A stretch of 64,000 bases of DNA from a virus (IMGVR_UViG_3300037297_000386), one strand, 5' to 3'. Numbered from the stretch's first letter, positions 13,501 through 37,227 are shown. Made by a program: numbers and translations. The notes: generated by a model from the sequence alone, not told the origin.

Positions 13501-14383
13501 GTATCTCATTAACAGTATCAGCTAGACTTTGTAATTCAGTTGGGTTTACACATCTTTGGTGCGTAAGTTCATCTATTCTATCTTGCTTATTTTGCACATA
13601 AGTATTTAGACTAGCTATAATATTCCTTATTTTAGCCCTGCCATCAGCCCCATTAACAACTAAACTAAGTTCAATCGGTGACAGATCTAAATTAATTTCA
13701 CCATAATTCTTCCTAGCAAGAATACACGGACAATATTCTTTCTCTGTGACGGCCACATTCCCGCACTCAGTACACACAGACCGCCCAACTGCTGTTCCCA
13801 TAGAAACACAATTTGCGTATCCAGTCTCAACTTTGCGCGCCAAATCCGCATAATTCTTTTTATCTAATGCAAACAACGCATGAACACGCTTAAATTTTGG
13901 ATCATAATATGTATCAATAATTATCCCGCGGATTCCATCAACGCTATCCGAACGATGATCCTTGCAAAGTGGTTTTCCAATCCACAGTTTATATGCTTTG
14001 ATAAGTTCAGCTTCACTAAATATATCTCCATTGGCATTTTTATATGGCATTATATTATCTGTCGAAACCCATCTAACCGAATTTTTGCCACTTTTGTTTT
14101 TAAACTCTTCAAAAAACCCAGACACAGGCTTGCCGTTTTTATTCATATTCGGTTCGCCAGTCTCTTGATTTACCAAAGAAGCTTCAGCTGCATGCATAAT
14201 AACCGCATGTCCGTATAAAAAATCTTTAGCTTTTGGAGCAACTCTTCGTAATTTTTTGGCTAATTTAACAAATCTTTTTAATACCAATTCATCCTTAAGG
14301 GCCTGTTTTGGCGACAAAATATTTTTTTCGGAACTGAATGTTAAATTTTCACCAAATTTTTCAAGCATTTTAAAACTCCTCAA
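10586..14383 (-). CDS. Putative prohead (capsid maturation) protease fused to long acidic scaffold-like region
   Basis: NANGDIF..L..AY..WIGKPLCKDH, VSMG, CTECG..C.C, ELSLV..GAD pattern typical of phage prohead-protease-like proteins; long charged coiled-coil C-terminus; likely start 14368 (MLEK, after GGAG). Confidence 0.65.
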   Translation of the reverse strand: MRSFKMLEKFGENLTFSSEKNILSPKQALKDELVLKRFVKLAKKLRRVAPKAKDFLYGHAVIMHAAEASLVNQETGEPNMNKNGKPVSGFFEEFKNKSGKNSVRWVSTDNIMPYKNANGDIFSEAELIKAYKLWIGKPLCKDHRSDSVDGIRGIIIDTYYDPKFKRVHALFALDKKNYADLARKVETGYANCVSMGTAVGRSVCTECGNVAVTEKEYCPCILARKNYGEINLDLSPIELSLVVNGADGRAKIRNIIASLNTYVQNKQDRIDELTHQRCVNPTELQSLADTVNEIRIKISSLMQSENLEKAAEMDEDKARTLAQLTATYRELKEAGAEKAAAEILAEITKLISKDKSIEKIEDETIPPMRPTPGGPSWSPMSEEGVEGLPTSTPLSGIPTERYASKEGDKQGAYLEELRLLRSKVESMQKSLNELKKVSKEENNMNSARLRARAKARRAYWLGGGGVNEPTPGKPKYEKEDAESIRNKEDKQMTGQPLETGSEGLHPGDEEKLRDAGRNGLNLSKAKLEERAMKRRAYWLGGGGVNEPTPGKPKYEKDPMAEKVRNNEDKHLQGLYDMGGKDGTVPGDMELKKKLLRAKLSAKFTKVADHDGQLCKSASRWDIYAGGKLILTATGSEIFGDDIDENWDYLSSREYGGDVIKYIRSEGFDRVAYLLKGAQPPMTDPLAGGAGGAGGEMAPIGDQLGEPIPSEGGETAPKDSEKPVEVKQPKEETQGKIDSALNAMEEKIAEIRDLASGMEEELVDIDVNIDEDSKGEAAEKTPEMAPMEGALASREEVLKVESLLNESADELALISEALDGEVNERLLKAAEQAWEDSQTILKETSMVLEAKKNKDKKEEKDENDKKDKKEEKAKNEDEKYEKKEAGKLPPGLEKFQKEKGKDKDKKDDKDKDDKDKKEEKDENDKEDKKEAQKLLEDALKIRSENRAALLAKAMGNGQFCEQCGSKLVPGQAHDCGVPADDCVVTEVDTDDSLEDLINDSSSYADDEVVESEASLKEARKRAREELVVQATDKILGKYELDLGKAENATEKTYFEAHPGGKGTMTELTHTKTDEAKVETISEIHDAMRDVAESGPRNVREAAMKLQEQFVKGALKVEDLDKLVAEGKVDSAAASYWKKYWSQGPDTGSFGADLSKDFAGKKKEAEDKTYKVKLRRAYDLGLMAQEKGMIEPSRVALDTYVDEIMKFDNAAFESTKRIVASMKSNKKSGKLPVVGADAATKAMEVTASADPVVEPNLVTQLNGLGWK
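12715..13014. repeat. 66-nt direct repeat (2 copies, 1 mismatch, 234 nt apart) encoding the RAYWLGGGGVNEPTPGKPKYEK repeat
   Basis: Copies at 12715-12780 and 12949-13014. Confidence 0.9.
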
Positions 14384-20676: not shown

Positions 20677-20774
20677 TATAAATCTAATTATTAGTATAAT
20701 ATTTTCTTTTCAACTGTTTAACTGTTGATTAGCCTTAATTAAATGGCATGTTTATCGGCTGCGATTCACGTACT

Positions 20775-21233
20775 CTAATTTTCATCTTTTTTTATCATCC
20801 ATAACCATTTCTTTCCATCTGTATGAACTAATACATATTTCCCTTTCGCTTTTCCGCTCGATATCTCGAACTCAATTTTTTTATTTGACCAACTAATAGG
20901 TTTGTAATGTCCTTTTTGATAAACTGAAACTTTCCCTGCTCCATATTCCCCAGAAGGTATAGTGTAACTACCTGTATAACTCAAAGGATGTGGTTCTGTG
21001 ATAGTTGCAAGTAATCTTTCTCCCTTTGATGGTAATTTCGCTTTTGGTATCGCCCAACTTTCCAGCACATTATCTTTTTGCAGACGTAAATCAAAATGAG
21101 TCCCAGCTCTATGTGCCTCATGTTTTTGGATAACAAATATATTTTTTCCTTTACCATTTTCTTTTGGCTCTTTCGTTTCATTGAAATTCCGTTTCTTTTT
21201 ATAAACTGATAAAGGATCTTTTGATATTGACTT
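20775..21233 (-). other. Polyprotein domain: LigD 3'-phosphoesterase (PE) module
   Basis: FVIQKHEAHRAGTHFDLRLQ..LESWAIPK..TEPHPLSY retains the His/His/Asp/Arg/Glu/His/Tyr catalytic set. Confidence 0.9.
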
Positions 21234-24200
21234 GGCTCTTTTTGATATATAACGAAAATTTGATTTAAAAGATTGTTTGTCTAATCTCTCAAGATCTTTA
21301 AAACTATTGGCTGTCAAAAAATCTAACAGATTAAATGGACCAACTTCAATGTCATTTGAAGCCAATATGTCTATCTTTTTAATATTTATTATTGGAAGAT
21401 ATGGAACAATATTTTGGACTCGTTTTAAATATAAATCATCAAAAGATGGAACTTGGACTTGCAAATAACCACGCAGTGTTACTAATCTAATCCATCCACG
21501 TTCGAAGGCAATATTATATATTTCATAATAATTCTTATCTGTAATTTCAGGTGCTCCTTCAAAAAGGTCTATATTTTCTGTAATAAATCGTGCATGTTCA
21601 AAAAATCCCACCGGATATAGTTTGTTATCTGGAGAAAGCCACCAAGCATCTGACGTATCCGCTCTTTTTGATATAAATGAATGTATAGATGCCCATTTAG
21701 ACGAAAACATATCATCAAATCCACTTGACGTAATAAACATAGAATATGGAATTTTTATTGGAAAAGCACCAGATGTGCCTTCCCATCTAGATGATGTTCT
21801 ATATTTCATAAATCTTTCTAAATCATCAAAACCACTTGACGCAACAAATATTGAATAAGGTATATTTAGTATATATCCTCCTGGCCAACTAATTTCTACC
21901 GATTTATATATACCTGGCAAATCAACAGATTGAACACGCCTAATATACTTATCTTCTTTAGCTGGGAATTCCAAATCCAAATTATTGTCTGCTTTTACAA
22001 TACGGATCCAATCATTATCAAATGCTATATCATATTCTCCACCAGACATATCTTTAAATAATTCCTTATGCTCATCAACAAAGATAGTATGACCAAATAC
22101 ATCAACTTCATATAATTGCCCGTCAGGAGAAAGCCACCACCCATATGGCAATTTTGCTCTCTTGGAAAGTACTTTTGGAAGTCGAAATGTTTTATTTTTT
22201 CCACAACCCCATATTTCTACTGAATCTATTAACCAGGAGCCTTCTGGAGTTTTTCCGTCATATTTAACTTTTGGAGGTTCCATATATTCTAAAGTTATAT
22301 GAGGACTGTAATTTTCAAAATGATCATCTACATCGATTCCAACGCTAACAAGCCCTTTTTTAAGTTCTTTGTGTAACTTCTTTAATTGTTCGGACAGTAT
22401 TTTTATTTTTGCCACTTTGCATCCATCCGAATGTTTAGTTGCAGGAAAATATGAAACTTTATTATCAAATTCAACAATAAAGGGCATCCATTTTTCTAAA
22501 ATTCTTTCTACAGTTTGTAAAAGCAGATTATGTTGATTATTTTTGACATTTTTACCAATATATAATAATGTTATATGCGGAACACTATTATCATGTTCTC
22601 CAAGTGAAGAAAACTGTTTTGATAAACTTTTTGGTAACACTGCAAATATACCAATTGGTTTCTTTTTAGCACATTTAGATAGCAAATATGTGCCTTCGCT
22701 ACTTGATTTATCTTTAAACAATGGTATAACTTTAGCTAATTCCTCTTGTTCGGATCCCTCTTTGTCGGAAATAATTTTTAACATTTTTTGATGTAAATCT
22801 TGGTCCATCAAAAATGATTGTAATTGTTTAAATGTCTCATAAGGATCTTTACTATTATATTCAAAAACGGTAATATATTGTGATTGATTTGCTTCATCAA
22901 CTATATATCTCAACCGAACAGAAGCATTATAGCCATGTTGTTCAGACACATGGGATCTGGCTTTATCAAGATAATTCCATAAAATATAAACATTTGGCAA
23001 TATTATGATTTTTCCTGACACTATACCATCTTCTTCAGCCGATGGAAACGGGAAAAAGCCAGGTAAATGTGATAATAATTCAAGAATATCATCTGGAATT
23101 CCTGATAAATATAATACAGATGCTACTATTTTATTTGTTTTTCCATTATCTCTAATCGACAAATGATCTCTTGCGTCATCTCCGCCATGACTAATGGGTT
23201 TTTTTATTCCACCATATTTTTCATGCAAAGCATACGGAACTCTAATGTTTCCGTTAGTTTTTAATGTTGTCGTATCTGTACGAACGCCATCACCTTTAAC
23301 TATTCCAGTAGTAAATCCATCAAAATCTTCATTTAAATCTTCGCACATTTCACGAAGTTCATTTCTCAAAGCATCAACATTAGTTTTTTTTGTATGAAAC
23401 TCCACATGATAACCAGTACCACCGCTTTCATAGATAGTAGGCTTGCCATATTTTGATTTAATCTTAGATGTAATTTTCTTTGCATATTTTAATGTTTTTT
23501 CCTTAGAAAAATTACCATGAACATCTAAATCAACAAATCCTAAATCTGTTTTAGATTCAATTACTCTATGAATTGATACCACACGACGATCTACCCAATA
23601 ATTATAATCTTTATTATCAGAAATTATTATCCTTTTATCATTATGATTTCGTTTGAGCACATTTTGGTTTTTACCTGTACCTATAAATAACATTACAGGT
23701 TTACCTTTTATTTCTGACATTATTTTTGATTTATTTTTTATATAATGATCGCGTATCTGTCTGCGAGTTAATTTTCTATCTTTATCTATCAGCACTTCAT
23801 CCCACTTTGGATCATTTTTTTCTTTTTCGTATTTACCGTCCTCTGATTCTTTTTCAGCACATTTAGATATAAATCTAGCCTCTTTTATCATTGACACAAT
23901 AGGTTCCTTGTACTCATGAGTTTTTTCGTCATATATGTTTTGAGCATCAAATGATTCCAGAAAATGTATTACATCTTCTCTAGATAGTTCTATATTGTGA
24001 GTTGCAGCTTGTGTTTGCCATATCTGAAGTTCTTTATTTATTTGTCCTATCCACTTACCTGGACGTCTATTAAATAAATTTTGCAGATCAAATCCACTAA
24101 TCAAAGGAACTAACGCCGTAGTTGTGGGAACTTTTTCAAATTGGCGTGTAAGATAATCATATCCTTCCATAGGAAAAGTTGGTAGCCATCCTCCTTTATG

Positions 24201-27200
24201 AGCTGCGGCATCGGCTAAAGCCACTTGCAAAGCACGTTTCCAGTCATCACCAAATTCTTGTGTAAGTTTCAAAATATTTCTTATTGCTTTTGCTGTAATC
24301 TTAGACGCTTTATCTGGATCTAAATCTACACGTCTAGCGGCATCAATTAAACTTTGTACACGCTTTATATCTTTACCTTTTGTTCCTTTAAGTTTGGTTA
24401 AAATATATTGAGCCGCTTGTATGCTGGAACGTTCATGCCCATGATATGTATTAACAAGTTTGTCTCCCATCTCTTTGACGCCTTGTACGGTAGGATCCAA
24501 TTTTCCAACATCGTGTAATAAAGTGGCCCAATTAAGTATATATCTATCAGCCTTATTTAAATCTTCATTTTTTGTAATTTCATAAATATTATCTAAGGCT
24601 TCCATTAAATGACCCCAAACATTAAATTCATGATGTGGGTTGTTTTGATCTAACTCCCATTCAGAATATTCATCTGGTAGTTGTAGAATTTCAGACCTAT
24701 ACCCTAAATCTTTAATTAATTCGAGGGCTTCACGCGGGCTACGATTCTCACTCATTATTTTTGATAATTCTTCTTGTCTACGTTCCCATGTAATCTTATT
24801 TCTAAATGCTTCCTGAACATCTTTATTTTTAGCTGCTGAGATTATTTCAGGATCTATTTTAAAATCAGGATATCTGTTAGCGAATCTTATTGCCCTTAAC
24901 ACACGTAATGGGTCGTCCAAAAATATTTGTTTAGCATCTATAAGTCTACCAACTTCTTTTTGTTGTTCTTCTGTGACAGTTTTTGGAGTTCGTAATATTT
25001 TATTTTTAATATCGTATATTCCTTGACCAGTAAAATCTTCTATCTTATTAGTATGTATATTATAAAATAAAGAATTAATTGTTAAATCTCTTCTAAATGC
25101 ATCTTTTATAGGAGAATCGGTAATAGTTACTATTGGTTTTCTTGATTCTTCATCATATTCTTCATCTCGCAAATTAACAACATCTATTGATTCTCCAAGC
25201 ATATGTATAACTGCTGTTTCTAAATGTTTTCCCTGTTCTGGTTTAGCAGGAATTAAACCAGCAGTAATATCAATATTATGGATACGTGCATAACGATTAA
25301 TATAATCGACGAATTCTTTACCAGTCATATTATCTATGGCTATATCAATATCTTTGGATTGCCGACCCATTAATTTATCTCGCACCCATCCACCAGCAAC
25401 TCTAATTGTAGTGCCAAGATTAAATTCGTCTACAGCAGATTTTAAAATATTGAAAATTTTTCTTTCCGTAGATGTAAGATTTATTGTATCATTAGCATAC
25501 TTAAGACGTTTCGAAATGTATGCCTTCGGATATTCCCAAAAACTAGGTTTATTACCTATCTCAGAAATATCAAATTGATGCCTCCAGAATTGTCCTCTTT
25601 CTTTATTAATTCGGTGCTCTTCCTTGGTCTTTTCTGATATAGATAGTTCTTTTTCTTTGTCAAAATCAGCTACCATTTTTTTAGCTTCTGGAATTATATC
25701 TTGTATTGCTTCTCTAATAACAGGGCTGGATTTTGCCAAATTCAAAATTTCAATTGGATTGTTTTTAAGTATATTTATAGCAGCTGTGTCAATAGCATGC
25801 TTAAACTCATCCTCTAAAAACAAACCAGAATTAAAATAAAAAGATGGGTTGAAATCTAATAAACGTAATAAGGCGTCTTGATTTACATCTTTTAATTCTG
25901 GCCTACGATAATATTTAAGAACAAAATATTCCTGCGGATGCAACATACTTAATTTAGTAGCTTGTGCAAGAATTAGATGAGGAAATTTTTCCATCAATTT
26001 TTTGTTATTTAAAAATGTACTTGGTTGGATAGCAAGGGCTTCCTCATCAGTATCTGGAAATATATTATTAGCGGCATTCTTATCTCTTAATGAAATTGGT
26101 TTTTCTGGATCATATTTAAACCATTCTGGTTGTTCAAATTCTATTTTATTTGGATCTTTAATGTTATGAGCAGCGCCAGCACTTTCTTCTAAATCTAGAA
26201 TGAGTGATTTTTCAAACCAATTTCCTAACCCATCTTCTTTTCCAAATCCCATATCTAATACTAATTCATCTTCACTATCTGCAATTCCCTGCCCATCAAA
26301 AGACTCATATTGAATAATGCCAAGTTTGTTTATCAAGTCCTCTGGAGGGTTAGAATACAAAAAATCTGCAAATATATTTTGTATTTGTTCATCTTCTATC
26401 GCTGAATAAATTGATGCAAAACGCTGGCGTGAATGTTCACGTACAGCTAATACCGCATCTTCATCAAATCGTGCAGACTCTACACCTACATGTACACACC
26501 CATTACCTTGTTCGATTAATGGTTTACGAAAAGTAACTGGTAGGGCAGGATTATCTGAAACAGCTTTAACTACAGCAGATATATCATATAAATCAGCGCC
26601 AGCTATGTCCAATGCTCTTCCTTTCAGATGTGAATACGGATTATTTGTTTCGGGAGGCCCAACAATATAACCATAATGTCTTTTTAATAACCTTGAAACT
26701 TGTCGCCAGACGCGCATATCGGATCTTAAATCTTGCGGAATTGTTTTTCCCGTAGCTTTTTTCCAGTAATGATTTAAAATATTTTTTTGGTCTTCTGGGG
26801 TTCTAACGCCTGAAGTCATTACTGCAGTTTCTGGCAAAAATGGTTTTAATGTTTTCCAGGCATTAAGTAGTAACTGATTAACTTTCGCTCTTGGAATCAT
26901 TAATATGCGTCTGTCTTCTTGTGAAATATTGATCAATTGTTTGTTCGGTTGGTTTATTCCCGATCTTAAATTATCGACCCAAACAATATCCGCCGGAGTT
27001 AATTCGGCACGTTTAGATATTAGTGGCTTAATATTTTGTTGAATAACACGTGCAATTTGTGGATTTTGTATTTGTATTAATTTTAAAACATAATCGTTTA
27101 TATTAGGCATACTAACGCTTCTAGCTAATACAATATGAACCACATTGTTTGCTACTCCTTCTTTATAAGGTGGTTGCATTAACTGTATCGATTCAGGAAA

Positions 27201-28679
27201 AATATTTGATACATATATCACGCGCTCACTAATAAGATTTAAATTAGGCCCACTAATATCAAATGCTATTCCTTCTTGATGAGCTGATTCTCCTGGCTCA
27301 GCAACGTCCGGACGATCAAACCCATCAGGTACAGTTCCAGCGACCATTATTCTGGATATTTTATTCAAAATATATTTATCCAAACGACTAAATGCTGTAC
27401 GATTAATCGATTTATTATATAATCGTTCAATTCTCCACGGATTTATTCTTTGTTCTATACCAAATGTTTTATGGAAATATCCTTCATATATTTTAGTATT
27501 CCATCTATTGTGCCACTTATGTCCGTCAAATACACCCCAACTTCTCCAATATTCTAATAATATTCTGGCTTGTTCGTGTTCATCCCTATAAACACTAGTA
27601 ATTGTAGAACCTGGTGGCAAAAATGGTGCTATAATTCTCCAAGCTATTTTAATACTTGGGTCATCAAATACGACATTTTTTCCTATATTGTTTACATTTA
27701 AATCTATATCAACTTGTGTCAATAGATTTTGAATATCAGTGGGATCCGAATATGGAATTGGCTGCTCTTCTTGTTGAATTGCTGGAGAAGCAGACATTGG
27801 TAGATCATCAGCCCTACAACTAATTGTGGCTTTTTTCTTTTTTCCCTCGTGTTTTTCAACCAATTCTGGATCAAGATACTGGTTTTTCAATGTAGATGCT
27901 TCGTGTCCAACTATTTCAGCAACTTCATTCAATGCATCTTTAAAATCTTTCTTTTTGAGCATTTCTTTCATCAAACGATTTGCATGAAATCCACGTAAAT
28001 CTTTCGCACTAATATCAAATTTAGAAAGATAGCGGTTAACTGCTCTGTCCCAAATCTTTTTACCATCGATTTCAAATATAAAATCGTCAGACTTTTTGCC
28101 TTTCATTAAATCCCGAATGACTTTTATTACTTTACTGTTTTCAAGGACAACATTTTGTTCAATTGCACCTTTTCCGGGAAAGTCAAACGTCATTTTATTG
28201 CCTTTCCCTTTTACATGTTTCACTTTAAGAGTAGACGCCCCAAATGTTCCTTCTTTAGCAGAATCCTCATTTCCGATACGCATAGCAGTATCGTCCATAA
28301 TGCCGACTATAGCAGCAATGGCACGAGTACGGTCATCGTCAGAGTTTAAATCTTTTTCATATTGTTTACGAACTTTCTTCAATTCTTTTTCAAGTTTCTT
28401 CAGTTTTTCTATCTTCTCATTCCACCGCTTTTTAATATGATCTTCTTTGTATTTATAAATAGTTCCGCCACTCTCACTTTTCTCTTTTTTTTCATACGCA
28501 GGCTTATCAGACACAACCTTGGCTCTTTTACTTATTTGTCTCATGTTTAGATCCTTTTTAAAGTTGTGATCAGCCAATAATGGTTGTAAGTTTTTATAAT
28601 AGCAGACTCGACGGAACCGATCTTTATCAATTAATCGTTTGCTCAATTTCTTGTTCATAATTGCCCACACCAAAGTCAT
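20775..28679 (-). CDS. Multi-enzyme polyprotein: topoisomerase IB / 2x M15 peptidase / CCA-type nucleotidyltransferase-HD / LigD-type primase-polymerase / 2H phosphoesterase / 2x unknown repeat / LigD 3'-phosphoesterase
   Basis: Single open frame of 2634 codons; family motifs recognised per domain (see sub-features); likely true start 28544 (MRQISKRA, after AAGGA). Confidence 0.85.
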   Translation of the reverse strand: MTLVWAIMNKKLSKRLIDKDRFRRVCYYKNLQPLLADHNFKKDLNMRQISKRAKVVSDKPAYEKKEKSESGGTIYKYKEDHIKKRWNEKIEKLKKLEKELKKVRKQYEKDLNSDDDRTRAIAAIVGIMDDTAMRIGNEDSAKEGTFGASTLKVKHVKGKGNKMTFDFPGKGAIEQNVVLENSKVIKVIRDLMKGKKSDDFIFEIDGKKIWDRAVNRYLSKFDISAKDLRGFHANRLMKEMLKKKDFKDALNEVAEIVGHEASTLKNQYLDPELVEKHEGKKKKATISCRADDLPMSASPAIQQEEQPIPYSDPTDIQNLLTQVDIDLNVNNIGKNVVFDDPSIKIAWRIIAPFLPPGSTITSVYRDEHEQARILLEYWRSWGVFDGHKWHNRWNTKIYEGYFHKTFGIEQRINPWRIERLYNKSINRTAFSRLDKYILNKISRIMVAGTVPDGFDRPDVAEPGESAHQEGIAFDISGPNLNLISERVIYVSNIFPESIQLMQPPYKEGVANNVVHIVLARSVSMPNINDYVLKLIQIQNPQIARVIQQNIKPLISKRAELTPADIVWVDNLRSGINQPNKQLINISQEDRRILMIPRAKVNQLLLNAWKTLKPFLPETAVMTSGVRTPEDQKNILNHYWKKATGKTIPQDLRSDMRVWRQVSRLLKRHYGYIVGPPETNNPYSHLKGRALDIAGADLYDISAVVKAVSDNPALPVTFRKPLIEQGNGCVHVGVESARFDEDAVLAVREHSRQRFASIYSAIEDEQIQNIFADFLYSNPPEDLINKLGIIQYESFDGQGIADSEDELVLDMGFGKEDGLGNWFEKSLILDLEESAGAAHNIKDPNKIEFEQPEWFKYDPEKPISLRDKNAANNIFPDTDEEALAIQPSTFLNNKKLMEKFPHLILAQATKLSMLHPQEYFVLKYYRRPELKDVNQDALLRLLDFNPSFYFNSGLFLEDEFKHAIDTAAINILKNNPIEILNLAKSSPVIREAIQDIIPEAKKMVADFDKEKELSISEKTKEEHRINKERGQFWRHQFDISEIGNKPSFWEYPKAYISKRLKYANDTINLTSTERKIFNILKSAVDEFNLGTTIRVAGGWVRDKLMGRQSKDIDIAIDNMTGKEFVDYINRYARIHNIDITAGLIPAKPEQGKHLETAVIHMLGESIDVVNLRDEEYDEESRKPIVTITDSPIKDAFRRDLTINSLFYNIHTNKIEDFTGQGIYDIKNKILRTPKTVTEEQQKEVGRLIDAKQIFLDDPLRVLRAIRFANRYPDFKIDPEIISAAKNKDVQEAFRNKITWERRQEELSKIMSENRSPREALELIKDLGYRSEILQLPDEYSEWELDQNNPHHEFNVWGHLMEALDNIYEITKNEDLNKADRYILNWATLLHDVGKLDPTVQGVKEMGDKLVNTYHGHERSSIQAAQYILTKLKGTKGKDIKRVQSLIDAARRVDLDPDKASKITAKAIRNILKLTQEFGDDWKRALQVALADAAAHKGGWLPTFPMEGYDYLTRQFEKVPTTTALVPLISGFDLQNLFNRRPGKWIGQINKELQIWQTQAATHNIELSREDVIHFLESFDAQNIYDEKTHEYKEPIVSMIKEARFISKCAEKESEDGKYEKEKNDPKWDEVLIDKDRKLTRRQIRDHYIKNKSKIMSEIKGKPVMLFIGTGKNQNVLKRNHNDKRIIISDNKDYNYWVDRRVVSIHRVIESKTDLGFVDLDVHGNFSKEKTLKYAKKITSKIKSKYGKPTIYESGGTGYHVEFHTKKTNVDALRNELREMCEDLNEDFDGFTTGIVKGDGVRTDTTTLKTNGNIRVPYALHEKYGGIKKPISHGGDDARDHLSIRDNGKTNKIVASVLYLSGIPDDILELLSHLPGFFPFPSAEEDGIVSGKIIILPNVYILWNYLDKARSHVSEQHGYNASVRLRYIVDEANQSQYITVFEYNSKDPYETFKQLQSFLMDQDLHQKMLKIISDKEGSEQEELAKVIPLFKDKSSSEGTYLLSKCAKKKPIGIFAVLPKSLSKQFSSLGEHDNSVPHITLLYIGKNVKNNQHNLLLQTVERILEKWMPFIVEFDNKVSYFPATKHSDGCKVAKIKILSEQLKKLHKELKKGLVSVGIDVDDHFENYSPHITLEYMEPPKVKYDGKTPEGSWLIDSVEIWGCGKNKTFRLPKVLSKRAKLPYGWWLSPDGQLYEVDVFGHTIFVDEHKELFKDMSGGEYDIAFDNDWIRIVKADNNLDLEFPAKEDKYIRRVQSVDLPGIYKSVEISWPGGYILNIPYSIFVASSGFDDLERFMKYRTSSRWEGTSGAFPIKIPYSMFITSSGFDDMFSSKWASIHSFISKRADTSDAWWLSPDNKLYPVGFFEHARFITENIDLFEGAPEITDKNYYEIYNIAFERGWIRLVTLRGYLQVQVPSFDDLYLKRVQNIVPYLPIINIKKIDILASNDIEVGPFNLLDFLTANSFKDLERLDKQSFKSNFRYISKRAKSISKDPLSVYKKKRNFNETKEPKENGKGKNIFVIQKHEAHRAGTHFDLRLQKDNVLESWAIPKAKLPSKGERLLATITEPHPLSYTGSYTIPSGEYGAGKVSVYQKGHYKPISWSNKKIEFEISSGKAKGKYVLVHTDGKKWLWMIKKDEN
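21249..22154 (-). repeat. Polyprotein: two paralogous domains of unknown function
   Basis: WWLSPDGQLYEV..H..F..AFDNDWIRIV and WWLSPDNKLYPV..H..F..AFERGWIRLV, each bounded by SKRA motifs. Confidence 0.75.
22170..22667 (-). other. Polyprotein domain: 2H phosphoesterase (LigT/ThpR-like)
   Basis: Two HxT motifs: VPHITLLYIG and SPHITLEY. Confidence 0.85.
23160..23855 (-). other. Polyprotein domain: LigD-type archaeo-eukaryotic primase-polymerase
   Basis: FVDLD, ESGGTGYHV, RTD..RVPYALH correspond to AEP motifs I-III. Confidence 0.7.
23871..25493 (-). other. Polyprotein domain: class II CCA-adding/poly(A) polymerase family nucleotidyltransferase with HD domain
   Basis: VAGGWVRDKL..DIDIAID, DAFRRDLTINSL, DDPLRVLRAIRFA, HHEFNVWGH..LLHDVGK. 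Confidence 0.9.
26460..26900 (-). other. Polyprotein domain: M15/LAS-type zinc peptidase 2
   Basis: MTSGVRTPEDQ; SHLKGRALD (H-x6-D); CVHV. Confidence 0.75.
27021..27809 (-). other. Polyprotein domain: M15/LAS-type zinc peptidase 1
   Basis: ITSVYRDEHEQ; SAHQEGIAFD (H-x6-D); VVHI. Confidence 0.7.
27825..28520 (-). other. Polyprotein domain: type IB DNA topoisomerase catalytic domain
   Basis: MRIGN, GASTL, FDFPGKG, SAKDLRGFHA, VGH..STLKNQYLDP supply the R-K-R-H-Y pentad of poxvirus/bacterial topo IB. Confidence 0.85.
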
Positions 28680-28962
28680 ATTTTAGTCTCTTTATTAAAT
28701 ATCCAATAAATCTCCGAATTTTTTGTGCCATAAGCTTTTGTGAATAACTCATGGTTTCTCCCAAGTCTTCACTTTCACGATATGTTAAACTTAATTTATC
28801 ATATATCTTTTTAATTGTGTCTATAACAGATTGAGCATGTGTTATATTTTTTCTAGACATAGATATCTCAAATTCCCTATTTAATGTCGTCAGGGCCTTT
28901 CGTATCGTATATTGATTATTATAGTCAATATACTTATCTATTTTTGTAAATAAATCTATCAT
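28627..28962 (-). CDS. Hypothetical protein
   Basis: 111-aa ORF, ATGA overlap with portal stop. Confidence 0.55.
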   Translation of the reverse strand: MIDLFTKIDKYIDYNNQYTIRKALTTLNREFEISMSRKNITHAQSVIDTIKKIYDKLSLTYRESEDLGETMSYSQKLMAQKIRRFIGYLIKRLKYDFGVGNYEQEIEQTIN

Positions 28963-31900
28963 GGTTTAATTGGCAGTGGTGTCCCACCTCCTGGCGTTGT
29001 AGCCGGGCCTTTAACACCTAATTCGCCTCCACCAGGACCAGGAATTATTGGACCACCCATACCAGGAGGAGCGCCTAATGGTGATGGGGCTCCTGTTGGA
29101 GGACCCCCTAATGGCGGTAATCCGCCGCCCATTGGGCCACCTAAACCACCAGGTACCAATCCTGCACCAGGGATACCAGATTCCTCTGCTCCCGGCGTAC
29201 CAGGTAATGGTGTTTCAGTTGGTTCTATAATATCTTCATCAGCTTTAATAGCTCTCAAAGCGCCTAGTGTCATTCCTTGTAATATTACAGCTTCCTTAGC
29301 TGTTATGGCATTATATATCATCTCTTCTTTTATTAACCTACGTTCTTCTTCCATATTGAGACCTAAACTTCTATATAATGTTGTCTGAGAAACTTTATTA
29401 TTCTGTGCTAAATTGTTTAATACATTTATATAATTATCCATATCAAACAATATCATTCGATTCCATTCCACTTCTGGAACTATTAACTTTTTATCCCCAT
29501 CCTTATACTCATAAAACTCTTGTATTTCACTAATCGGAGCGAATATTTTTTTGGTTAGCCACTGCGCCATCATATTTCTAAATGATTCATATCGCTGTTT
29601 TAATACTTCCAACCCAACAGTCGCACTATTAAAAGATGCCCCTTCTTGTGTAACTACAGCCTTTGGAACCATCAAACCAAACAAAATATTATCTAAAATA
29701 AAATTCATATCTGGTGTAATATCGATAATAGCGCCACTGGCTCCAACACGTTCAACAGATATTCCTGCATGAGATATTATCTTAAAGTCTTTGTCGTATT
29801 GAGCACTGTTCCCTAATATTATTAATGACTTATGACGTTTAGTAACAAATAATCCTCCAGGAACAGTAAAACACCATACCTTTCCATTATATTTTGTTTT
29901 ATTAAGAGTAGCACATTTGGATTTTGGATTTTGTCTATACATTGGAAATCTTCCTTTAGATCCGTCGCTCCAATTTGTAATCCAGTATTCCTTACCTTGC
30001 CCATTTTTAGTTTTATATACACTAGGCGAATATCCAGCCAAAAATGCAAGTTCAAAAATATCATTCGCTAAATTTTCAGATATAGTACTATATTTAAAAC
30101 CACATGTATTATTTTTATTAACATATGTGGTTCCATCACCATTGTTCAATGCTTTTAATAATATTTTCATTTGTCGAGGAGAAATAGAATACACCCACCT
30201 AGGAATTCGTTTATTATGTGAATTGCATTTACCATTTTCACCTATTTCATTAAAAATATGTCTAACTAATTTAGCATCATACACAATACCTTTCCATATT
30301 GATTTATGTTTATTTTCAGAAAATCCAGAACCATTATTAATAATTCTAGACTTAACCGTTTTGTTAAAATATTTAGCGATTTTCGTTAAATTATTTTCCA
30401 TCGCAAGTTTTTCTTCAGTTTCTTCTTCTTGGTATAAATTAATACTATTTGGATATTTATTATTTATAATACAAACATATCCTTCACTAATAACATTGCC
30501 CAAAAACTCCAGATAATCATCTGTTTTTATTTCATGTCCACATACATTTGTATACTCAATTTCAGTGCCATTAAAATTAGTTACCGCTCTAAACCTATAA
30601 TTAGTTTTAGACATGTTTTTTGCTTTTATAAATTCCCAATCAGACCACCCATCTTTTAATTTTCTACTAACAAACATTCTATGATTCGGAGTAACCATAG
30701 CATCTACTTGCTGCCCATTAAAATGATACATTTCACCATTATAATCATATAAATGAGATTTTAACGGAACACGGTATTCTAATTTTTCAGTATCTTTGTT
30801 AAAACAGGCTATCTTGAAACCAGGTTTAATGCTAGCTCTATAAGACCCATCATCGTTTTTAGTATAATCCATTACTTCATTATATTTTTTAAATCCTTTA
30901 TTAGTCAAAACTTGTGTTTGTTCATCGTGACATTCAAATGTTTGTCTCCACTTTTCTAAATCATCACCAGTTGGATGATATTCACCCTCAGCTGTTCCTC
31001 CAACTTTTACGATAGTTATTGGATTTACAAGATTGTCAGCTTGTGCAAATTTAGAGTTTCCTTGAATAGTATACAAACCATTGCGACGAGTAATAAATAA
31101 ACCAGTTGGAACTTCATAACACCAGACTAATCCATCATAATTTATTTTATCTATATTAGCCCCACCATGATTTGGATTACCATATATTAATGGTTCTTCT
31201 CCGTAATTAGTATTAGACCACGTAATAATATATTCGGTTGACTTATTGCTAACATTAGATATCAATATATTTGGAGAAAACCCACATTTATACACAAGCT
31301 CGCTTACATCATCTGCTAACTGTTTAGATACAGTAGAATATTTATAAGCAACTGATTTATTTTTATATTTACTTTTTATAACAGTTCCATCTCCTGCTAA
31401 TAATGCATTTAATAAAACCTGTAAATGTTCCCTGTGTAATTTAAGTATCCAGCGAGGAATTCGTTTATTATGAGAAGTACAATTTTCTCCATCTCCTATT
31501 TCTTTTATAAATAGATTCGTTAATTCCTTATTACATATCTTTCCTTCCCAATATTCATGTGGAGAATGCCTATTGAATCCAGCACCACGAATTTTCGTGT
31601 AATTATTACAATATAAACCTAAACTATTTGCAAAATTATTTGTACATTTAAATATTTTATCATAGTATTTTGACCTTGTTTCTTGCCCAATGATTATTTT
31701 GTTATCCGATCTTTTACCATAAATATAATTTTTATATATACAACCTTCGCTTAATAAATATCCTAAGAATTCCATATAACTGTTGGTAGAAATTTTCGAA
31801 TCAAATATTTCTATGGTGTCTCTTTTTTCTCCAATCCAATCTGCATGTGTTTTAAAACGATAATAACGCGATTTAGATATATTTTTGGCCAACTCAAAAT

Positions 31901-33200
31901 TCCAATCGGTCCAATTATTTTTAATTTTACTCGTAACCCACATACGATGTTCTGGGGTTACACATATATCCACCTTTTTGCCATTAAAATGGTACATTTC
32001 ACCTTTATATTTTGATATATGTACACCGGTAGGTTTATGATATTCTATTTGGTTAGTCCTTGAATTATAGCAAGCTATTTTAAGATTAGGTTTTACTTTA
32101 GCTGAAATTACTTCTCCGTTTTTGTCAGTCTGAAAATCTATTCCATCAATTCCTTTTATAATTCCATTTTCTGTAATAATCTCTGTATCTTGTGAATAAC
32201 ACTCGCGTAATTTGTCATATAGCATTAAATCTTTATATATGCTGACAATTGGAGAAGTTCCATGTATTCCATATGAAGAGGTTAACATTTTCAAATGGCT
32301 AACATGAAAATTATCCAACGGAATGTTGTTCCCCTTTTTAACATGATATAATATTTCTTCATCTATTTGTTTACGTAGCTGTATATCTGCAGGATTACTG
32401 CTATGAACCAATCTTTGTAAAGCAGCGTCTGGTCGCATAGATATTACTGGGTCACCACCTAATACGGATGTTTTAACATGTATATAATCAGGGTTTTGGA
32501 TAATTATATTGTTCCATATCCCTTTGTTTTCATCTAATTCAGCATATGGAAACACTTCACCCATTTTCCAAAATTCTAATGAAATAGATTGTAAAATATT
32601 CACAAGATCTATCTCATCAGCCATATCTTTGAAAAATTGTTCTACTTTATGATCTTTACATTTTATATTTATTTTGCTTATAGGATATGTAGCATGCAAA
32701 TTTATACAATTATGAACTAATGGATGGGTATCATAAAAATTCCTGTTCCACGCATTCATAGTTATACGATCCCGTGGTAATTGAAGGTTTGCAATCTGAA
32801 ATAATGGAGAATATATTTCTGGAGCTTGTCTAATGGTACTTCCAGAAGCACCTAATCTATTTCCATCTGATACCGTAAGACCGGCCGTTTTACTAAGCCC
32901 ATATGCCTCTCGTATTTCTTGAGATCTTTTGTATGAATTGCTATATACAATAATTGGGGACGGCCCAGATGAATTATTTGTGGTCTCAGTTGCTCTAATT
33001 AATTCTGTCTTTCGGTATTCTGATACGCCATCTGGGATAGATTCGTTATAAACAGAATTATCCCTATTAGATATATGATATTCTGAATTTGATACCCCTT
33101 CTTTTTTTAACTTGACCGAGCGAGCACCGTGGCGAGCAGTTTTAACAGTAGACAATTTATTTACTGGTTCTATCCTCCATTCTCCTCTTCGTATACCCAT
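28959..33200 (-). CDS. Portal protein interrupted by two inteins; Pro/Gly-rich C-terminus
   Basis: Immediately downstream of terminase; THPLV..CI, GEVFPY, NPDYIHV, HGTSPI motifs are portal-like; removal of both inteins leaves 656 aa. Confidence 0.75.
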   Translation of the reverse strand: MGIRRGEWRIEPVNKLSTVKTARHGARSVKLKKEGVSNSEYHISNRDNSVYNESIPDGVSEYRKTELIRATETTNNSSGPSPIIVYSNSYKRSQEIREAYGLSKTAGLTVSDGNRLGASGSTIRQAPEIYSPLFQIANLQLPRDRITMNAWNRNFYDTHPLVHNCINLHATYPISKINIKCKDHKVEQFFKDMADEIDLVNILQSISLEFWKMGEVFPYAELDENKGIWNNIIIQNPDYIHVKTSVLGGDPVISMRPDAALQRLVHSSNPADIQLRKQIDEEILYHVKKGNNIPLDNFHVSHLKMLTSSYGIHGTSPIVSIYKDLMLYDKLRECYSQDTEIITENGIIKGIDGIDFQTDKNGEVISAKVKPNLKIACYNSRTNQIEYHKPTGVHISKYKGEMYHFNGKKVDICVTPEHRMWVTSKIKNNWTDWNFELAKNISKSRYYRFKTHADWIGEKRDTIEIFDSKISTNSYMEFLGYLLSEGCIYKNYIYGKRSDNKIIIGQETRSKYYDKIFKCTNNFANSLGLYCNNYTKIRGAGFNRHSPHEYWEGKICNKELTNLFIKEIGDGENCTSHNKRIPRWILKLHREHLQVLLNALLAGDGTVIKSKYKNKSVAYKYSTVSKQLADDVSELVYKCGFSPNILISNVSNKSTEYIITWSNTNYGEEPLIYGNPNHGGANIDKINYDGLVWCYEVPTGLFITRRNGLYTIQGNSKFAQADNLVNPITIVKVGGTAEGEYHPTGDDLEKWRQTFECHDEQTQVLTNKGFKKYNEVMDYTKNDDGSYRASIKPGFKIACFNKDTEKLEYRVPLKSHLYDYNGEMYHFNGQQVDAMVTPNHRMFVSRKLKDGWSDWEFIKAKNMSKTNYRFRAVTNFNGTEIEYTNVCGHEIKTDDYLEFLGNVISEGYVCIINNKYPNSINLYQEEETEEKLAMENNLTKIAKYFNKTVKSRIINNGSGFSENKHKSIWKGIVYDAKLVRHIFNEIGENGKCNSHNKRIPRWVYSISPRQMKILLKALNNGDGTTYVNKNNTCGFKYSTISENLANDIFELAFLAGYSPSVYKTKNGQGKEYWITNWSDGSKGRFPMYRQNPKSKCATLNKTKYNGKVWCFTVPGGLFVTKRHKSLIILGNSAQYDKDFKIISHAGISVERVGASGAIIDITPDMNFILDNILFGLMVPKAVVTQEGASFNSATVGLEVLKQRYESFRNMMAQWLTKKIFAPISEIQEFYEYKDGDKKLIVPEVEWNRMILFDMDNYINVLNNLAQNNKVSQTTLYRSLGLNMEEERRLIKEEMIYNAITAKEAVILQGMTLGALRAIKADEDIIEPTETPLPGTPGAEESGIPGAGLVPGGLGGPMGGGLPPLGGPPTGAPSPLGAPPGMGGPIIPGPGGGELGVKGPATTPGGGTPLPIKP
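29808..30932 (-). mobile_element. Intein 2 in portal (375 aa) with LAGLIDADG endonuclease
   Basis: TFE|CHDEQTQV start, TPNH block B, FLGNVISEG / LNNGDG, ILGN|S end. Confidence 0.9.
31056..32201 (-). mobile_element. Intein 1 in portal (382 aa) with LAGLIDADG endonuclease
   Basis: LRE|CYSQDTE start, TPEH block B, FLGYLLSEG / LLAGDG, TRRNG..IQGN|S end. Confidence 0.9.
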
Positions 33201-33211
33201 CGTTTACCTCT

Positions 33212-35080
33212 TTATAACCCAGGCAAATATGCCAATATAGGTCCTGTACTTATTGCGTTAATCTGATGCGGTTTAATCTTAAACCCTTGAGTCAAATAAA
33301 ATTTATAAGCCAAATATGCGTACATCAGACTCATAAGCCCATCATTAGGACCAGAACCCTTCACATATCTAGTAATTACTCTTCCCTGAAATGTTCTAAT
33401 TTCTTTTTCCATTGAACAACAATGTTCTATTAACCACTGTATTCGTTCATAACTAACCCATGGAAACATGACTTTACTTTTTCTCATATTATTAAACAAA
33501 TCTTCCAACATTATGTGTGGATTACAAATAAGTCTAAGATCTTCAGAATCATATTTAACTGGGTTTATCAAACTTCCACTACTAAGGCAACCTATTACAC
33601 GAGATCCATATTCTCTTTGTAATTCTGGAACAATATCATTAGCATGTCCAAGGTCCGCTACAGCTATTTGAATATTAAATCTTCTAAACATCTCATCTAC
33701 TACATCTTTTTTGTGTTGAAAATTATTGCGTTTTAACTTAAAAGCATTTTCTATATGCATAATTCCATCTTTACTAACAGAAATAACTACTACAGATGAA
33801 AAGGATTTACCTCCTCTAGAGTTAAAAGTATCATTTTTCTCACCCCAGTCAATACCCATAAAAGTTGGCGAATAATTATTATTAACAACTTTGTAATTAT
33901 TATTTTTTTGAATTGAAGGAGATCCAAATGATATCTTCTTATTTACATCGCGACAATATTTATAAATTTCCTCTTCTGACATGGGTAAATCAGATCCACT
34001 ATAAAATTCTCCAAGAATTTCATTCTGCCAAATTCTTTCCGAATTCGTTGGATGTATTCCTGGCTTTTCCTTGAGTATAGTCTCTTTATGGAAAAATGGT
34101 ATTAATAATTGATTAAAATGGAAACCGACATATTGTGGCTCACTGCCATCTGGCAATTGCGTCTGGGACGAAACCCATTTTCCTCTTTCCACAGCTTGCA
34201 CCTTATCTTGTTGATGCTGACATTTTGGACACTCAACTATATTTCCAAATAACCATATCTTTTCCCAGTCATCGTTCCCAGGAGTGTATAACATAAAATA
34301 TTCTGAACAATTCTCACAGTGTAGATGATAGTATCTTTTATCAGAGGCATCCCACATTTTATGAAAATTGGATCCACGCTGCAACGGTGTGCCAAAATAT
34401 AATTGTATTCCTTGCCCTTTAGGCCCATATCTGGATGCAGTCAAAGTTCTTTTGCTATTTCCAATATCATCTTGATTCATACGCTGAACTTCATCATAAA
34501 ATATACCGTCTAATGACATACCATGAAGCCTTTGTGCATCATTGGCATTTGAATCGACCCAAAGTTTGTTTTCATTTTTAAATTGTTTTTCCGTAAGCGT
34601 ATCATCTGGAACATCTATCCTACGTCGTCCAGTTTCATTATCAAGAGACAATGATTGTTTTAGCACATAGTTATTGTTCGATGTTCGCATCATAGTACTA
34701 AGTTTATCTTTAGCAAATTTTTGTACTAATGCTAAAGCCGGGAAACAGTGTAAAATTCTAATTGGAGGCCTACCTATAGAGCCGCCAAATAATCCGCTGG
34801 TGCAAAAATATAACTCAAGGGCAGTGGCCATAGTAGTAGCACCAACTTGTCTTCCCTTCACACAAACGACAGGTTTTCCATTTTGACCTAATGCTTTAGT
34901 TGCAATATAACGATAAATGTCAGCTAAAAATTTCCATCCCGTTCCACCACCAAGTTCTAGCGGCTTTCCATCAATAGTAAGATATTCAGATGCAAAAAAA
35001 ACGGGATCTACTTTTAATACTTCTTTCTTTAGATCCTCGAAATATTTTTCTACTGTATGATTTGATTTATTGTTTACCAC
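33212..35080 (-). CDS. terL: Terminase large subunit (GpA-like)
   Basis: KGRQVGATT Walker A-like, IFYDE Walker B, GTP, CxxC zinc ribbons, GFHFNQL, GIDWG nuclease motif. Confidence 0.88.
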   Translation of the reverse strand: MVNNKSNHTVEKYFEDLKKEVLKVDPVFFASEYLTIDGKPLELGGGTGWKFLADIYRYIATKALGQNGKPVVCVKGRQVGATTMATALELYFCTSGLFGGSIGRPPIRILHCFPALALVQKFAKDKLSTMMRTSNNNYVLKQSLSLDNETGRRRIDVPDDTLTEKQFKNENKLWVDSNANDAQRLHGMSLDGIFYDEVQRMNQDDIGNSKRTLTASRYGPKGQGIQLYFGTPLQRGSNFHKMWDASDKRYYHLHCENCSEYFMLYTPGNDDWEKIWLFGNIVECPKCQHQQDKVQAVERGKWVSSQTQLPDGSEPQYVGFHFNQLLIPFFHKETILKEKPGIHPTNSERIWQNEILGEFYSGSDLPMSEEEIYKYCRDVNKKISFGSPSIQKNNNYKVVNNNYSPTFMGIDWGEKNDTFNSRGGKSFSSVVVISVSKDGIMHIENAFKLKRNNFQHKKDVVDEMFRRFNIQIAVADLGHANDIVPELQREYGSRVIGCLSSGSLINPVKYDSEDLRLICNPHIMLEDLFNNMRKSKVMFPWVSYERIQWLIEHCCSMEKEIRTFQGRVITRYVKGSGPNDGLMSLMYAYLAYKFYLTQGFKIKPHQINAISTGPILAYLPGL

Positions 35081-36012: not shown

Positions 36013-37227
36013 CTATTTGTCCACTTTAACTTCTTTTTGTGGTTTGTCTGGGCGAAGTCGTGAATAACCCATGTGTCTAAACTTGCCACTTTCCATTTTT
36101 TCTTGGTATGAGACTTCTATAACAACTACTTTACCGTTATCAATCTTTTTTCTAACCTCTTGCTCTTCTTCTTTTGGCAATCCAGATAATTTACCAACTT
36201 CTACCAATTTTCCATTATAATATTGATATGCAGGAAATACTAATTTGTCTTCTCCCTTATTATACTTATTTAATATAACCTCATCAGTCTTAGCTTTAGC
36301 CCCAGGTTTAAATTTGGCCCATTCACCATATGGTTCATTAGATCCTTTTGCACCATATTTATATTTCGAATCTTTTGGTTTTAATACAATACCTTCAGCG
36401 TTTACTTTTAATGCATCATTAATTGCTTTATCTTTGTCTGAATATGTATAATTATCTACTATCTTAATTGTATCTGTTCCTTTACCAATTAATTCTTTTA
36501 GTTTATTATATCTTTCAATATAATCCTTCTTGGTAATATCATCACCATTAAACCACAATAAATCATAAACATAAAATAATGCTTTTCCGTTACCACTTTT
36601 AATTTTTTCTTGTGCTTTCTCTGGAGAACTGTTAACTACAGTTTGGATATCCGATATAGATTGTTTACCATTTTTATCTTCCCATACAAGTTCACCAAGA
36701 AAAAAACTCCCATTTTCCATTTTATCTTCTAAATCTTTTACTAGGCTTGGCACATTTGAACTAAAATCTTCTCCGCGCCTCGTGTACAATTTAACAGCAC
36801 CAGCTTTATCCTTGATTGCCTGTGTTTTAAAACCATCTAATTTAATTTGTATTATTATATTACTATCATCATTATTTTTTAGAATATCATCCGGGTTCTC
36901 TAATTTTTTTAATTTCATCGGCGCAATGGGGCCAATTCCACTTGCATGTCGTAATGATAGAGGCCTATAAATAATATTAGCCTGTTTTATTTTATTTCGT
37001 GACTCTGAAGAACTTGACTCTGAAGAACTTATTGTATCCAAACCAACTTGCTCACGATAATTTTGAACAATATTTTCAACACTTTCAGATTTTTTATTAT
37101 TAATAGTATTTAAAATATCTTGGACAGATGATAATTCGTGTTTTGCTAATGATTGTAAAAATTCACAAAACCAATCACCGCCAGATTCTGACAACATTTG
37201 TAAGTCGTTGCGCGATACTTTTACCAT
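36013..37227 (-). CDS. ATP-dependent DNA ligase (minimal catalytic + OB domains) with ~95-aa N-terminal leader
   Basis: Motif I QIKLDG, III FLGEL, IIIa YVYDLL, IV EGIVLK, V WAKFK, VI RLRPDK. Confidence 0.9.
   Translation of the reverse strand: MVKVSRNDLQMLSESGGDWFCEFLQSLAKHELSSVQDILNTINNKKSESVENIVQNYREQVGLDTISSSESSSSESRNKIKQANIIYRPLSLRHASGIGPIAPMKLKKLENPDDILKNNDDSNIIIQIKLDGFKTQAIKDKAGAVKLYTRRGEDFSSNVPSLVKDLEDKMENGSFFLGELVWEDKNGKQSISDIQTVVNSSPEKAQEKIKSGNGKALFYVYDLLWFNGDDITKKDYIERYNKLKELIGKGTDTIKIVDNYTYSDKDKAINDALKVNAEGIVLKPKDSKYKYGAKGSNEPYGEWAKFKPGAKAKTDEVILNKYNKGEDKLVFPAYQYYNGKLVEVGKLSGLPKEEEQEVRKKIDNGKVVVIEVSYQEKMESGKFRHMGYSRLRPDKPQKEVKVDK

Follow-up and report, generated by a model that had tools for sequence, protein, structure and literature searches.

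In the current analysis we have identified a short conserved peptide, [IL]SKRA or a close variant, at the joints between the enzyme modules of a giant open reading frame (ORF) of a huge phage from wetland metagenomes. The ORF (20775..28679, minus strand) lies in a 64,000-nucleotide stretch of the viral record IMGVR_UViG_3300037297_000386, and this whole stretch is referred to here as the window. With a probability that we place at about 55%, the giant protein is a virion-delivered 'polyvalent protein' that is processed as a polyprotein. Polyvalent proteins are multi-enzyme virion proteins that have been proposed to be injected with the DNA and possibly processed (Iyer, Burroughs, Anand, de Souza, Aravind 2017, PMC5512222).

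The protein consists of about ten autonomous modules strung on disordered linkers, with a peptide of the form hydrophobic-[IL]-S-K-R-A, referred to below as the tag, preceding each of them. According to the mechanism proposed here, the tag would identify cargo and ejection proteins generally in this phage clade, and site-specific proteolysis at it, beside its Arg or its Ala, would take place during virion maturation. Such cutting would trim leaders and free the modules as separate enzymes that enter the cell with the DNA. By analogy with phiKZ/SPN3US and with T4, where gp21 acts on capsid-targeting sequences, the enzyme responsible may be the scaffold-fused prohead protease encoded at 10586..14383. 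Packaging and injection we infer from the position of the gene and from the presence of cell-wall peptidase modules.

The source record in IMG/VR is linear and 162,416 bp long, its completeness is put at 40% by CheckV, and the sequencing runs that contain the phage DNA are wetland and marsh metagenomes. One strand carries all the genes of the window, and all window coordinates given below refer to the minus strand. The frame of about 2600 residues reported by the initial annotation of this stretch is indeed single and open, and encodes 2634 residues from the first ATG. The start codon is ambiguous on the basis of sequence comparison. The start chosen by the initial annotation (M46 at 28544, reading MRQISKRA) is preceded by the Shine-Dalgarno sequence AAGGA and resembles the MRQ[IL]SKRA N-termini of the homologues P0010 and P0025, and M8 (28658), which matches the N-terminus MNKKLSKRL of P0009, is the other likely start.

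Tags and enzyme modules of the giant protein

The motif [IL]S[KC][RC][AL] occurs 10 times in the giant protein. When the sequence was shuffled 5000 times with its composition preserved, the mean was 0.019 copies and the maximum one. The nine sites listed by the initial annotation have all been recovered, with the difference that ISKRL itself occupies 25503-25517 and not 25494-25517. To these are added a tenth copy, LSKRL at residue 12, two variant sites and one decayed site. The copies of the tag differ in their codons, Ser being encoded by AGT, TCT, TCG, TCC and TCA and Arg by AGA, CGT, AGG and CGG, with Ala codons varied as well, and the conserved element is therefore the peptide and not a DNA or RNA element. 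Explanations at the level of the nucleotide sequence (promoter, recombination site or internal start) have been rejected on account of this variation and of the inability of CTA and CTT to initiate. The active site of Topo IB carries an 'SKxxY' motif; the tag was considered as such a motif and this too has been rejected, as no Tyr follows it. In the six-frame translation of the window the strict motif is found within long real ORFs on the coding strand only, in the giant ORF and in two others.

It is extremely improbable that the pattern is an artefact, whether of chance, of low-complexity composition, of repeated nucleotide sequence or of a contig in which separate genes have been joined by chimerism or mis-assembly. 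The linkers are rich in Lys and the sequence comes from a metagenome assembly. Against this stand the ten tags where 0.02 are expected by shuffling, the codons that differ between copies and a frame without a stop across 7.9 kb. An identical giant protein (P0002) is moreover encoded on a 311,797-bp contig of a second assembly, and 48 further homologues from independent samples share the architecture, so that the mis-assembly which the initial annotation had named as a possible objection finds no support.

The N-terminal part of the protein contains a leader copy of the tag, LSKRL (residues 12-16, nt 28632..28646), which is translated only from M1 or M8, and an ISKRA (residues 49-53, nt 28521..28535) immediately before a topoisomerase IB module (residues 53-285, nt 27825..28523). 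Pfam and PDB sequence matches to Topo IB span residues 86-277 and the candidate catalytic residues are R134, K152/154, R229, H259 and Y268. An ISCRA (residues 286-290, nt 27810..27824) follows, situated in a Lys-rich/Pro-rich linker of variable length. It is succeeded by two LAS/VanY-like peptidase modules, A (residues 291-553, nt 27021..27809; H467-x6-D474, H515) and B (residues 559-753, nt 26421..27005; H684-x6-D691, H730), with an ISKRA (residues 554-558, nt 27006..27020) between them. These modules are sub-threshold in Pfam (VanY, E=0.0019), and the H-x6-D...H pattern of zinc ligands is kept. When the N-terminal part was modelled, variola Topo IB was the top fold match, and matches to the VanXY and VanY folds were weak.

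Peptidase module B is followed by a decayed site, ASIYSA (residues 755-760, nt 26400..26417), which reads FASIYSA at 754-760 where most homologues have ASISKRA. The region beyond it (residues 761-1054, nt 25518..26399) has no assigned function and consists of a truncated 'GDWFEKSP...FFYRGLH' helical-repeat module and further helical repeats; this module is conserved in the family of giant proteins and has been partly deleted in the present phage. The variant site ISLRD (residues 862-866, nt 26082-26096) marks a module end within this region. The next tag, ISKRL (residues 1055-1059, nt 25503..25517), precedes a CCA-adding nucleotidyltransferase with an HD module (residues 1060-1603, nt 23871..25502; GGWVRD at 1096, DIDIA at 1110, LLHDVGK at 1387). 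Pfam and PDB matches identify it as a class-II CCA-adding nucleotidyltransferase, and the HD match is weak.

After an ISKCA (residues 1604-1608, nt 23856..23870) there is a primase-polymerase of the LigD type (AEP; residues 1609 to about 1839, within nt 22683..23855), with VDLDVHG at 1716 and GGTGYHVEF at 1753. It is sub-threshold in Pfam (LigD_Prim-Pol, E=8e-4) and retains the DxD and sGxGyH signatures, and homologues of the giant protein give an outright LigD_Prim-Pol match. The variant site LSIRD (residues 1840-1844, nt 23148-23162) marks the end of this module and is followed by a module without assigned function (residues 1845-1999, within nt 22683..23855). LSKCA (residues 2000-2004, nt 22668..22682) then leads to a 2H phosphoesterase (residues 2005-2170, nt 22170..22667), which is recognised by Pfam and PDB and has HITL at 2035 and 2127. 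LSKRA (residues 2171-2175, nt 22155..22169) precedes copy A of a domain with the signature 'WWLSPDG' (residues 2176-2335, nt 21675..22154), ISKRA (residues 2336-2340, nt 21660..21674) precedes copy B with 'WWLSPDN' (residues 2341-2477, nt 21249..21659), and a last ISKRA (residues 2478-2482, nt 21234..21248) introduces the LigD 3'-phosphoesterase (PE) module (residues 2483-2634, nt 20778..21233), with QKHEAHRAGTHFDLR at 2518. The PE domain matches PF13298 at 5e-22 and PDB 3p43 at 2e-26. Pfam gave no family for the 'WWLSPD' repeats or for residues 1844-2003, and the ESM Atlas no match for repeat A.

The catalytic signatures of every named enzyme are intact. The Topo IB, nucleotidyltransferase, 2H and LigD phosphoesterase assignments of the initial annotation are thus borne out by sequence matches, and its two M15 peptidases and its AEP by intact motifs, with weak fold matches for the peptidases. 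'Signal destruction', as a role of the 2H module, is a guess. In all, at least eight distinct module types are present in one polypeptide, a number within the 2 to 15 disparate and mostly catalytic domains by which polyvalent proteins are defined.

Conservation of the tag among homologues and in separate genes

Homologues of the giant protein (49 proteins of 1450-3800 residues) have been identified in a metagenomic protein collection, and one more in IMG/VR. The GenBank phage collection contained no close relative, and the only matches there were to the CCA module and, distantly, to the terminase. The homologues carry different cassettes in a reshuffled order, and some have additional modules: ATP-dependent DNA or RNA ligase, DJ-1/PfpI, ASCH, an extra 2H, an HExxH peptidase and PF18760 (listed for P0016 and P0050), which we take to be ART-PolyVal. 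The expectation of the initial annotation that homologous phages would join different cassettes by the same linker has been realised in this set. [IL]SKRA occurs 173 times in the 49 homologues against 0.2 expected, and up to 14 times within a single protein. The commonest pentapeptides of the family are ISKRA (99) and LSKRA (74), the top word from a catalytic core being found 28 times. Within the tag, Ser, Arg and Ala have the highest information content, followed by the I/L position and Lys.

Module boundaries were examined by projecting each module of the giant ORF onto the homologues and measuring the offset from the module start to the tag. Single-linkage clustering of the segments delimited by the motif merged all of them, some being multi-module, and the per-module analysis was used instead. 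The module starts 0-3 residues from a tag in 24 of 27 instances for Topo IB, 10 of 11 for the CCA module, 13 of 16 for 2H and nearly all instances of the repeat modules. In an alignment of 17 sequences over the block of Topo IB and peptidases A and B, the tag columns are almost invariant. The linkers vary in length and composition, with Lys abundant ahead of the tag and Pro abundant behind it. The variant sites recur among the relatives as [IL]S[LIVA]RD. Most proteins of clade 1 start with M-x(1-12)-tag, and several end shortly after a tag.

An AlphaFold2 model of residues 40-880, built from the 17-sequence alignment (mean predicted local distance difference test, pLDDT, of 71), has confident domains that are separated by segments of pLDDT<50. 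The tags at 49, 286 and 554 fall in three of these segments (residues 40-60, 280-311 and 551-560, respectively), the decayed site at 754 falls in the fourth (residues 753-764), and no tag is situated within a folded core of the modelled region. The other sites are module starts in the homologues. The initial annotation had stated that none of its motifs lies inside a recognised catalytic core, and had regarded motifs inside folded domains, or unconserved in homologues, as grounds for refutation; the statement holds, the linkers are of low pLDDT and the tag is conserved.

The tag is not confined to the giant protein. Strong copies have been identified in only a few further coding-strand ORFs of the 162-kb record. 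The first is a 482-residue protein (3964..5412) with a Gly/Ala-rich hydrophobic segment at the N-terminus and ISKRA at residues 305-309 (nt 4486-4500). Its S-K-R-A is invariant in 10 homologues down to 32% identity and lies within a linker of variable length. The ISKRA is followed by a 'DGIYGPxTADAL' segment, which resembles peptidoglycan-binding domains in sequence although Pfam gives no match, and then by a second site, VSQRQ/ISQRD. This protein is likely to be an ejection or tape-measure-like protein.

The second is a hydrophobic protein of 213 residues (3333..3974) that starts MTGNAISKRA, with the motif at nt 3945-3959. An exhaustive HMMER scan gave 56 distant homologues of this protein; the tag lies in the first 20 residues of 31 of them, several of which start M-ISKRA. 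P0228 (991 residues) is a natural fusion in which the 213-residue family follows the 482-residue family, with LSKRA precisely at the joint. A weaker variant of the tag is found in a coiled-coil protein of 165 residues (39990..40487), which starts MKRISKLA (nt 40464-40478).

In relatives of the phage, stand-alone genes between the giant and the protease genes also start with the tag, including a NUDIX hydrolase (MYISKRA). Such stand-alone genes of the head module are situated at 20629-21165 and 21165-21533 in L002 and at 19093-19425 and 19449-20993 in L003, and the N-termini represented are MYISKRA, MHISKLA, MMDRLSLSKRH and MKKFYLSKRA. The leader form M-x(0-12)-[IL]SKRA is thus found in the giant-protein family, in the 213-residue family and in the stand-alone genes of L002 and L003. 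The tag heads separate genes and stays at the joint after fusion, and it thus delimits autonomous units on their N-terminal side, in fused and stand-alone form alike.

Two further observations concern the same record. An ORF of 2141 residues at base 109845, outside the window, has LSKRA at residue 315. A helical tag of ~25 residues, [LIV]A[DN]xLDxxG...EA..ID, is shared by at least six ORFs that lie around the head module and are otherwise unrelated (upper coordinates on the minus strand 2717, 6346, 8770, 16752, 20373, 44024 and 44645) and is not present in the giant ORF. One phage may thus have two distinct signals for cargo or sorting, the ISKRA tag and the helical tag.

Gene order, the candidate protease and alternative readings

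The genes of this region are arranged in the order terminase, portal, a small ORF, the giant ORF, about ten small ORFs and the protease-scaffold gene, an order that is kept in both clades of homologues; L002 and L003 share the arrangement of terminase, portal, giant ORF and protease region. The large terminase is of the gpA type (33212..35080) and the portal protein (28959..33200), the upstream neighbour of the giant ORF, has 1413 residues and is interrupted twice. The placement of the giant gene directly downstream of terminase and portal, as first described, therefore holds, the gene lying between the portal and the prohead protease.

The protein encoded at 10586..14383 comprises 1265 residues, with a protease domain at about residues 53-244 (nt 13652-14227) that has the invariant motifs CKDH143 and VS194MGT and matches the head-maturation-protease family phrog_18299 at 1e-12. 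In a full VIA-align scan of 48,161 chains, the best matches of the modelled domain were T4 gp21 (Z 8.5, root mean square deviation 2.8 over 122 residues) and the assemblin of varicella-zoster virus (Z 7.0); Foldseek gave a weak match to T4 gp21 (E 0.04). Judged from the family match, the invariant residues and the model, this is a genuine prohead protease of the assemblin fold. Outside the protease domain the protein consists of coiled-coil and low-complexity regions rich in Lys, Glu and Asp, as in a fused scaffold. The family has at least 803 members, which share 50-77% identity across their first 330 residues, and several of them are encoded on the same contigs as homologues of the giant protein. 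No S78, S8, trypsin-like or MPTase-PolyVal domain was found by Pfam in the record, which represents only some 40% of the complete genome. The prohead protease is the sole protease found and, by analogy with known systems, the best candidate for the processing enzyme.

The capsid-targeting leaders of T4 are cut by gp21 at L/I-x-E. The assemblins of herpesviruses cleave behind an Ala whose P2 neighbour is basic or polar, and a cut after the Ala of the tag is therefore as plausible as one after the Arg. The prohead protease of SPN3US, gp245, cuts only a subset of the head proteins, at a short motif (PMC10052503).

The sequence of the protease-scaffold protein has some other features. The protease domain holds a Cys-rich Zn-ribbon insert (CTECGN...YCPC), and inteins, as identified by Pfam intein families, are present inside it in some homologues (P0073, P0124 and P0164). 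Two copies of RRAYWLGGGGVNEPTPGKPKYEK and a C-terminal RRAYD are also found. The pattern [KR][KR]A[YFMW] occurs 3 times against about 0.2 expected and is conserved in the homologues; its dibasic-Ala likeness to S-K-R-A was noticed post hoc.

The portal of 1413 residues corresponds to the 670-residue portal of L002 (62-77% identity) with two inserts. The first, at about residues 335-713, starts with Cys and matches LAGLIDADG_3 at residues 597-657, and the second, at about residues 756-1131, also starts with Cys and is followed by an extein Ser. From these sequence features the portal gene looks like one with two inteins. The ORF of 443 residues after the protease gene (9004-10335) is not recognisable as a capsid protein and has 'DPxxYFxW..' helical repeats, which resemble the 'DPEKFFYRGLHKEYP' repeats of the conserved module without assigned function in the giant-protein family.

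Several observations weigh against processing of the giant protein by this protease. [IL]SKRA is absent from the protease-scaffold protein, from seven of its homologues and from the other head ORFs of the window, whereas in T4 and phiKZ the cargo motif is also found in the protease, the scaffold and the capsid protein. The expectation which follows from the T4/phiKZ analogy of the initial annotation, that these proteins would share the tag, thus fails. No major capsid protein has been identified in the window. A prediction of the complex between residues 40-265 of the protease and the junction peptide of residues 2462-2497 gave a score of 0.02, which is evidence neither for nor against. Tags at extreme C-termini would free just 1-10 residues and are poorly explained by cleavage alone. 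The processing enzyme may instead be a zincin of the HExxH type, as found in 14 of the 49 homologues, and the 60% of the genome that lies outside the record according to CheckV could be home to another protease. Some polyvalent proteins, such as the N4 vRNAP, are packaged uncut (PMC5512222).

These points lend themselves to two other readings. The tag may not be cut, and may serve as an incorporation or sorting signal or as a docking site for the portal, the scaffold or an ejection chaperone, with the giant protein staying whole. ArdC and TraC1 are likewise delivered uncut (PMC5512222), the tagged proteins constitute a functional class of likely ejected proteins, cutting gains little at the C-terminal tags and the usual substrates of the protease are without the tag. 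We nevertheless regard this reading as unlikely. For sorting, a single signal per polypeptide would suffice, without a copy ahead of each module. Three features favour proteolysis over a sorting signal used once or a linker with a passive role. Repeated exchange of cassettes has left the tag in place at every joint. The tag also stands at the N-termini of separate genes and is retained, as the N-terminal tag of the downstream gene, at the joint after fusion (P0228). Finally, the tags lie in exposed, disordered linkers of variable length, which are the usual setting of protease sites. The targeting sequence of T4 doubles as its cleavage site, and targeting and cutting are therefore not exclusive.

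The other reading accepts cleavage and assigns it to a different enzyme, either an HExxH zincin metallopeptidase, perhaps encoded elsewhere in the genome, or a host protease that would act after ejection and thereby activate the enzymes within the cell. Its appeal lies in the 17 HExxH modules (HEL[TI]HMMQ) of those 14 homologues, in the protease-scaffold protein being without the tag, in only about 40% of the genome being in hand and in the proposal of Iyer et al. that polyvalent proteins are autoprocessed by MPTase domains (PMC5512222). The zincin is however missing from 35 of the 49 homologues. All the tags of the giant protein are kept although neither an HExxH module nor a match to PF18818, S8 or trypsin-like families is found in it or in the rest of the 162-kb record. 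A host protease confined to a single compartment fits poorly with a tagged set made up of membrane- or peptidoglycan-targeted proteins and cytoplasmic enzymes of nucleic acids. The members of a diverse clade have inherited the tag in common, with four of its positions strictly conserved, and it marks proteins for different compartments. A phage enzyme is for these reasons favoured over a host enzyme, and cutting by a zincin or a host protease would be a rather improbable outcome. The host protease OmpT prefers dibasic K/R-K/R-A sites; cleavage of the OmpT type has been judged unlikely, the I/L and Ser of the tag being strictly conserved.

Relation to known systems and significance

The giant protein shares with polyvalent proteins the presence of unrelated catalytic domains in one chain, a gene situated among the late genes for portal and terminase, and predicted delivery with the DNA. 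Domains of the 2H and DD-peptidase types are common to both, and homologues of the giant protein carry PF18760 and HExxH peptidase modules. Among the polyvalent hallmarks, 2H and LAS-peptidase modules are present, no MuF match was obtained in the giant ORF and PF18818 was not found in the record. In a word search of the paper on polyvalent proteins (PMC5512222), linkers, LigD and CCA-adding enzymes are unmentioned and 'topoisomerase' occurs once; a fixed delimiter peptide between modules, or the present set of repair enzymes, does not appear there by this search. The tag differs from what is described for polyvalent proteins in marking stand-alone cargo genes as well. A literature search for the motif returned unrelated papers only; further searches led to the papers on polyvalent proteins and on SPN3US/T4 and to no description of the motif.

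The likeness to the T4 capsid-targeting sequence (CTS) and to the phiKZ and SPN3US systems consists in a short motif that is conserved, has a hydrophobic residue a few positions ahead of the known or predicted cut and ends the leaders of head proteins that are internal or ejected, in a serine protease of the assemblin fold in the head module and in a subset of head proteins as substrates. In contrast to T4, the motif is basic (S-K-R-A) and not x-E, the sites delimit whole enzymes and not propeptides, and cleavage is in the present case a prediction; the protease-scaffold protein is, unlike those of T4 and phiKZ, without the motif. The polyproteins of RNA viruses (picornavirus, nidovirus and potyvirus) similarly have one ORF with many enzymes and a conserved short site at each flexible joint. 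The present ORF differs in belonging to a double-stranded DNA tailed phage, in having no homology to them and in its products, which are predicted virion cargo and not replication proteins. No cognate protease is found within the giant ORF beyond the LAS peptidases of the cell-wall type.

Bacterial LigD combines PE, Pol and ligase domains. The giant protein has a strong PE match and intact AEP signatures, and no ATP-dependent ligase domain is found in it. Such a ligase is encoded by a separate gene (36013..37227) upstream of the terminase, and in several relatives the ligase is an internal module of the giant protein. Unlike in LigD, PE and Pol are parted by modules and tags, and the LigD-related modules are a dispersed set of parts and not a LigD enzyme.

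The initial annotation had proposed an injected kit for DNA end repair, tRNA repair, signal destruction and wall penetration. The concept of an injected multi-enzyme virion protein has a precedent (PMC5512222), and the proposal is partly supported: the tag at the head of separate genes and at a fusion joint fits a processing or targeting signal, and the absence of the tag from the protease-scaffold protein goes against the T4/phiKZ analogy. More tentatively, at what we would call somewhat less than even odds, [IL]SKRA may be both an admission ticket and a cutting site, making a true polyprotein strategy for injected cargo in this clade. Any enzyme behind a tag, whether encoded by its own gene or within the giant ORF, would then be packaged, freed and delivered with the DNA. 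This would account for the rapid shuffling of cassettes and would amount to plug-and-play loading of the head.

Polyvalent proteins are thought to be a first strike on the defences of the host, and how an enzyme chain of 300 kDa is handled has so far been guesswork. A conserved delimiter that is shared with stand-alone cargo genes turns this guess into a testable rule and predicts the exact mature products. The tag also provides a sequence signature for cargo proteins in uncultured huge phages and, if its role is confirmed, would be a simple means of loading foreign proteins into capsids. The cargo pairs repair of DNA ends (LigD PE, Pol and Topo IB) with repair of RNA ends and tRNA (CCA-adding enzyme and 2H), which suggests that the phage may arrive ready to undo nuclease-based defences before its own genes are expressed.

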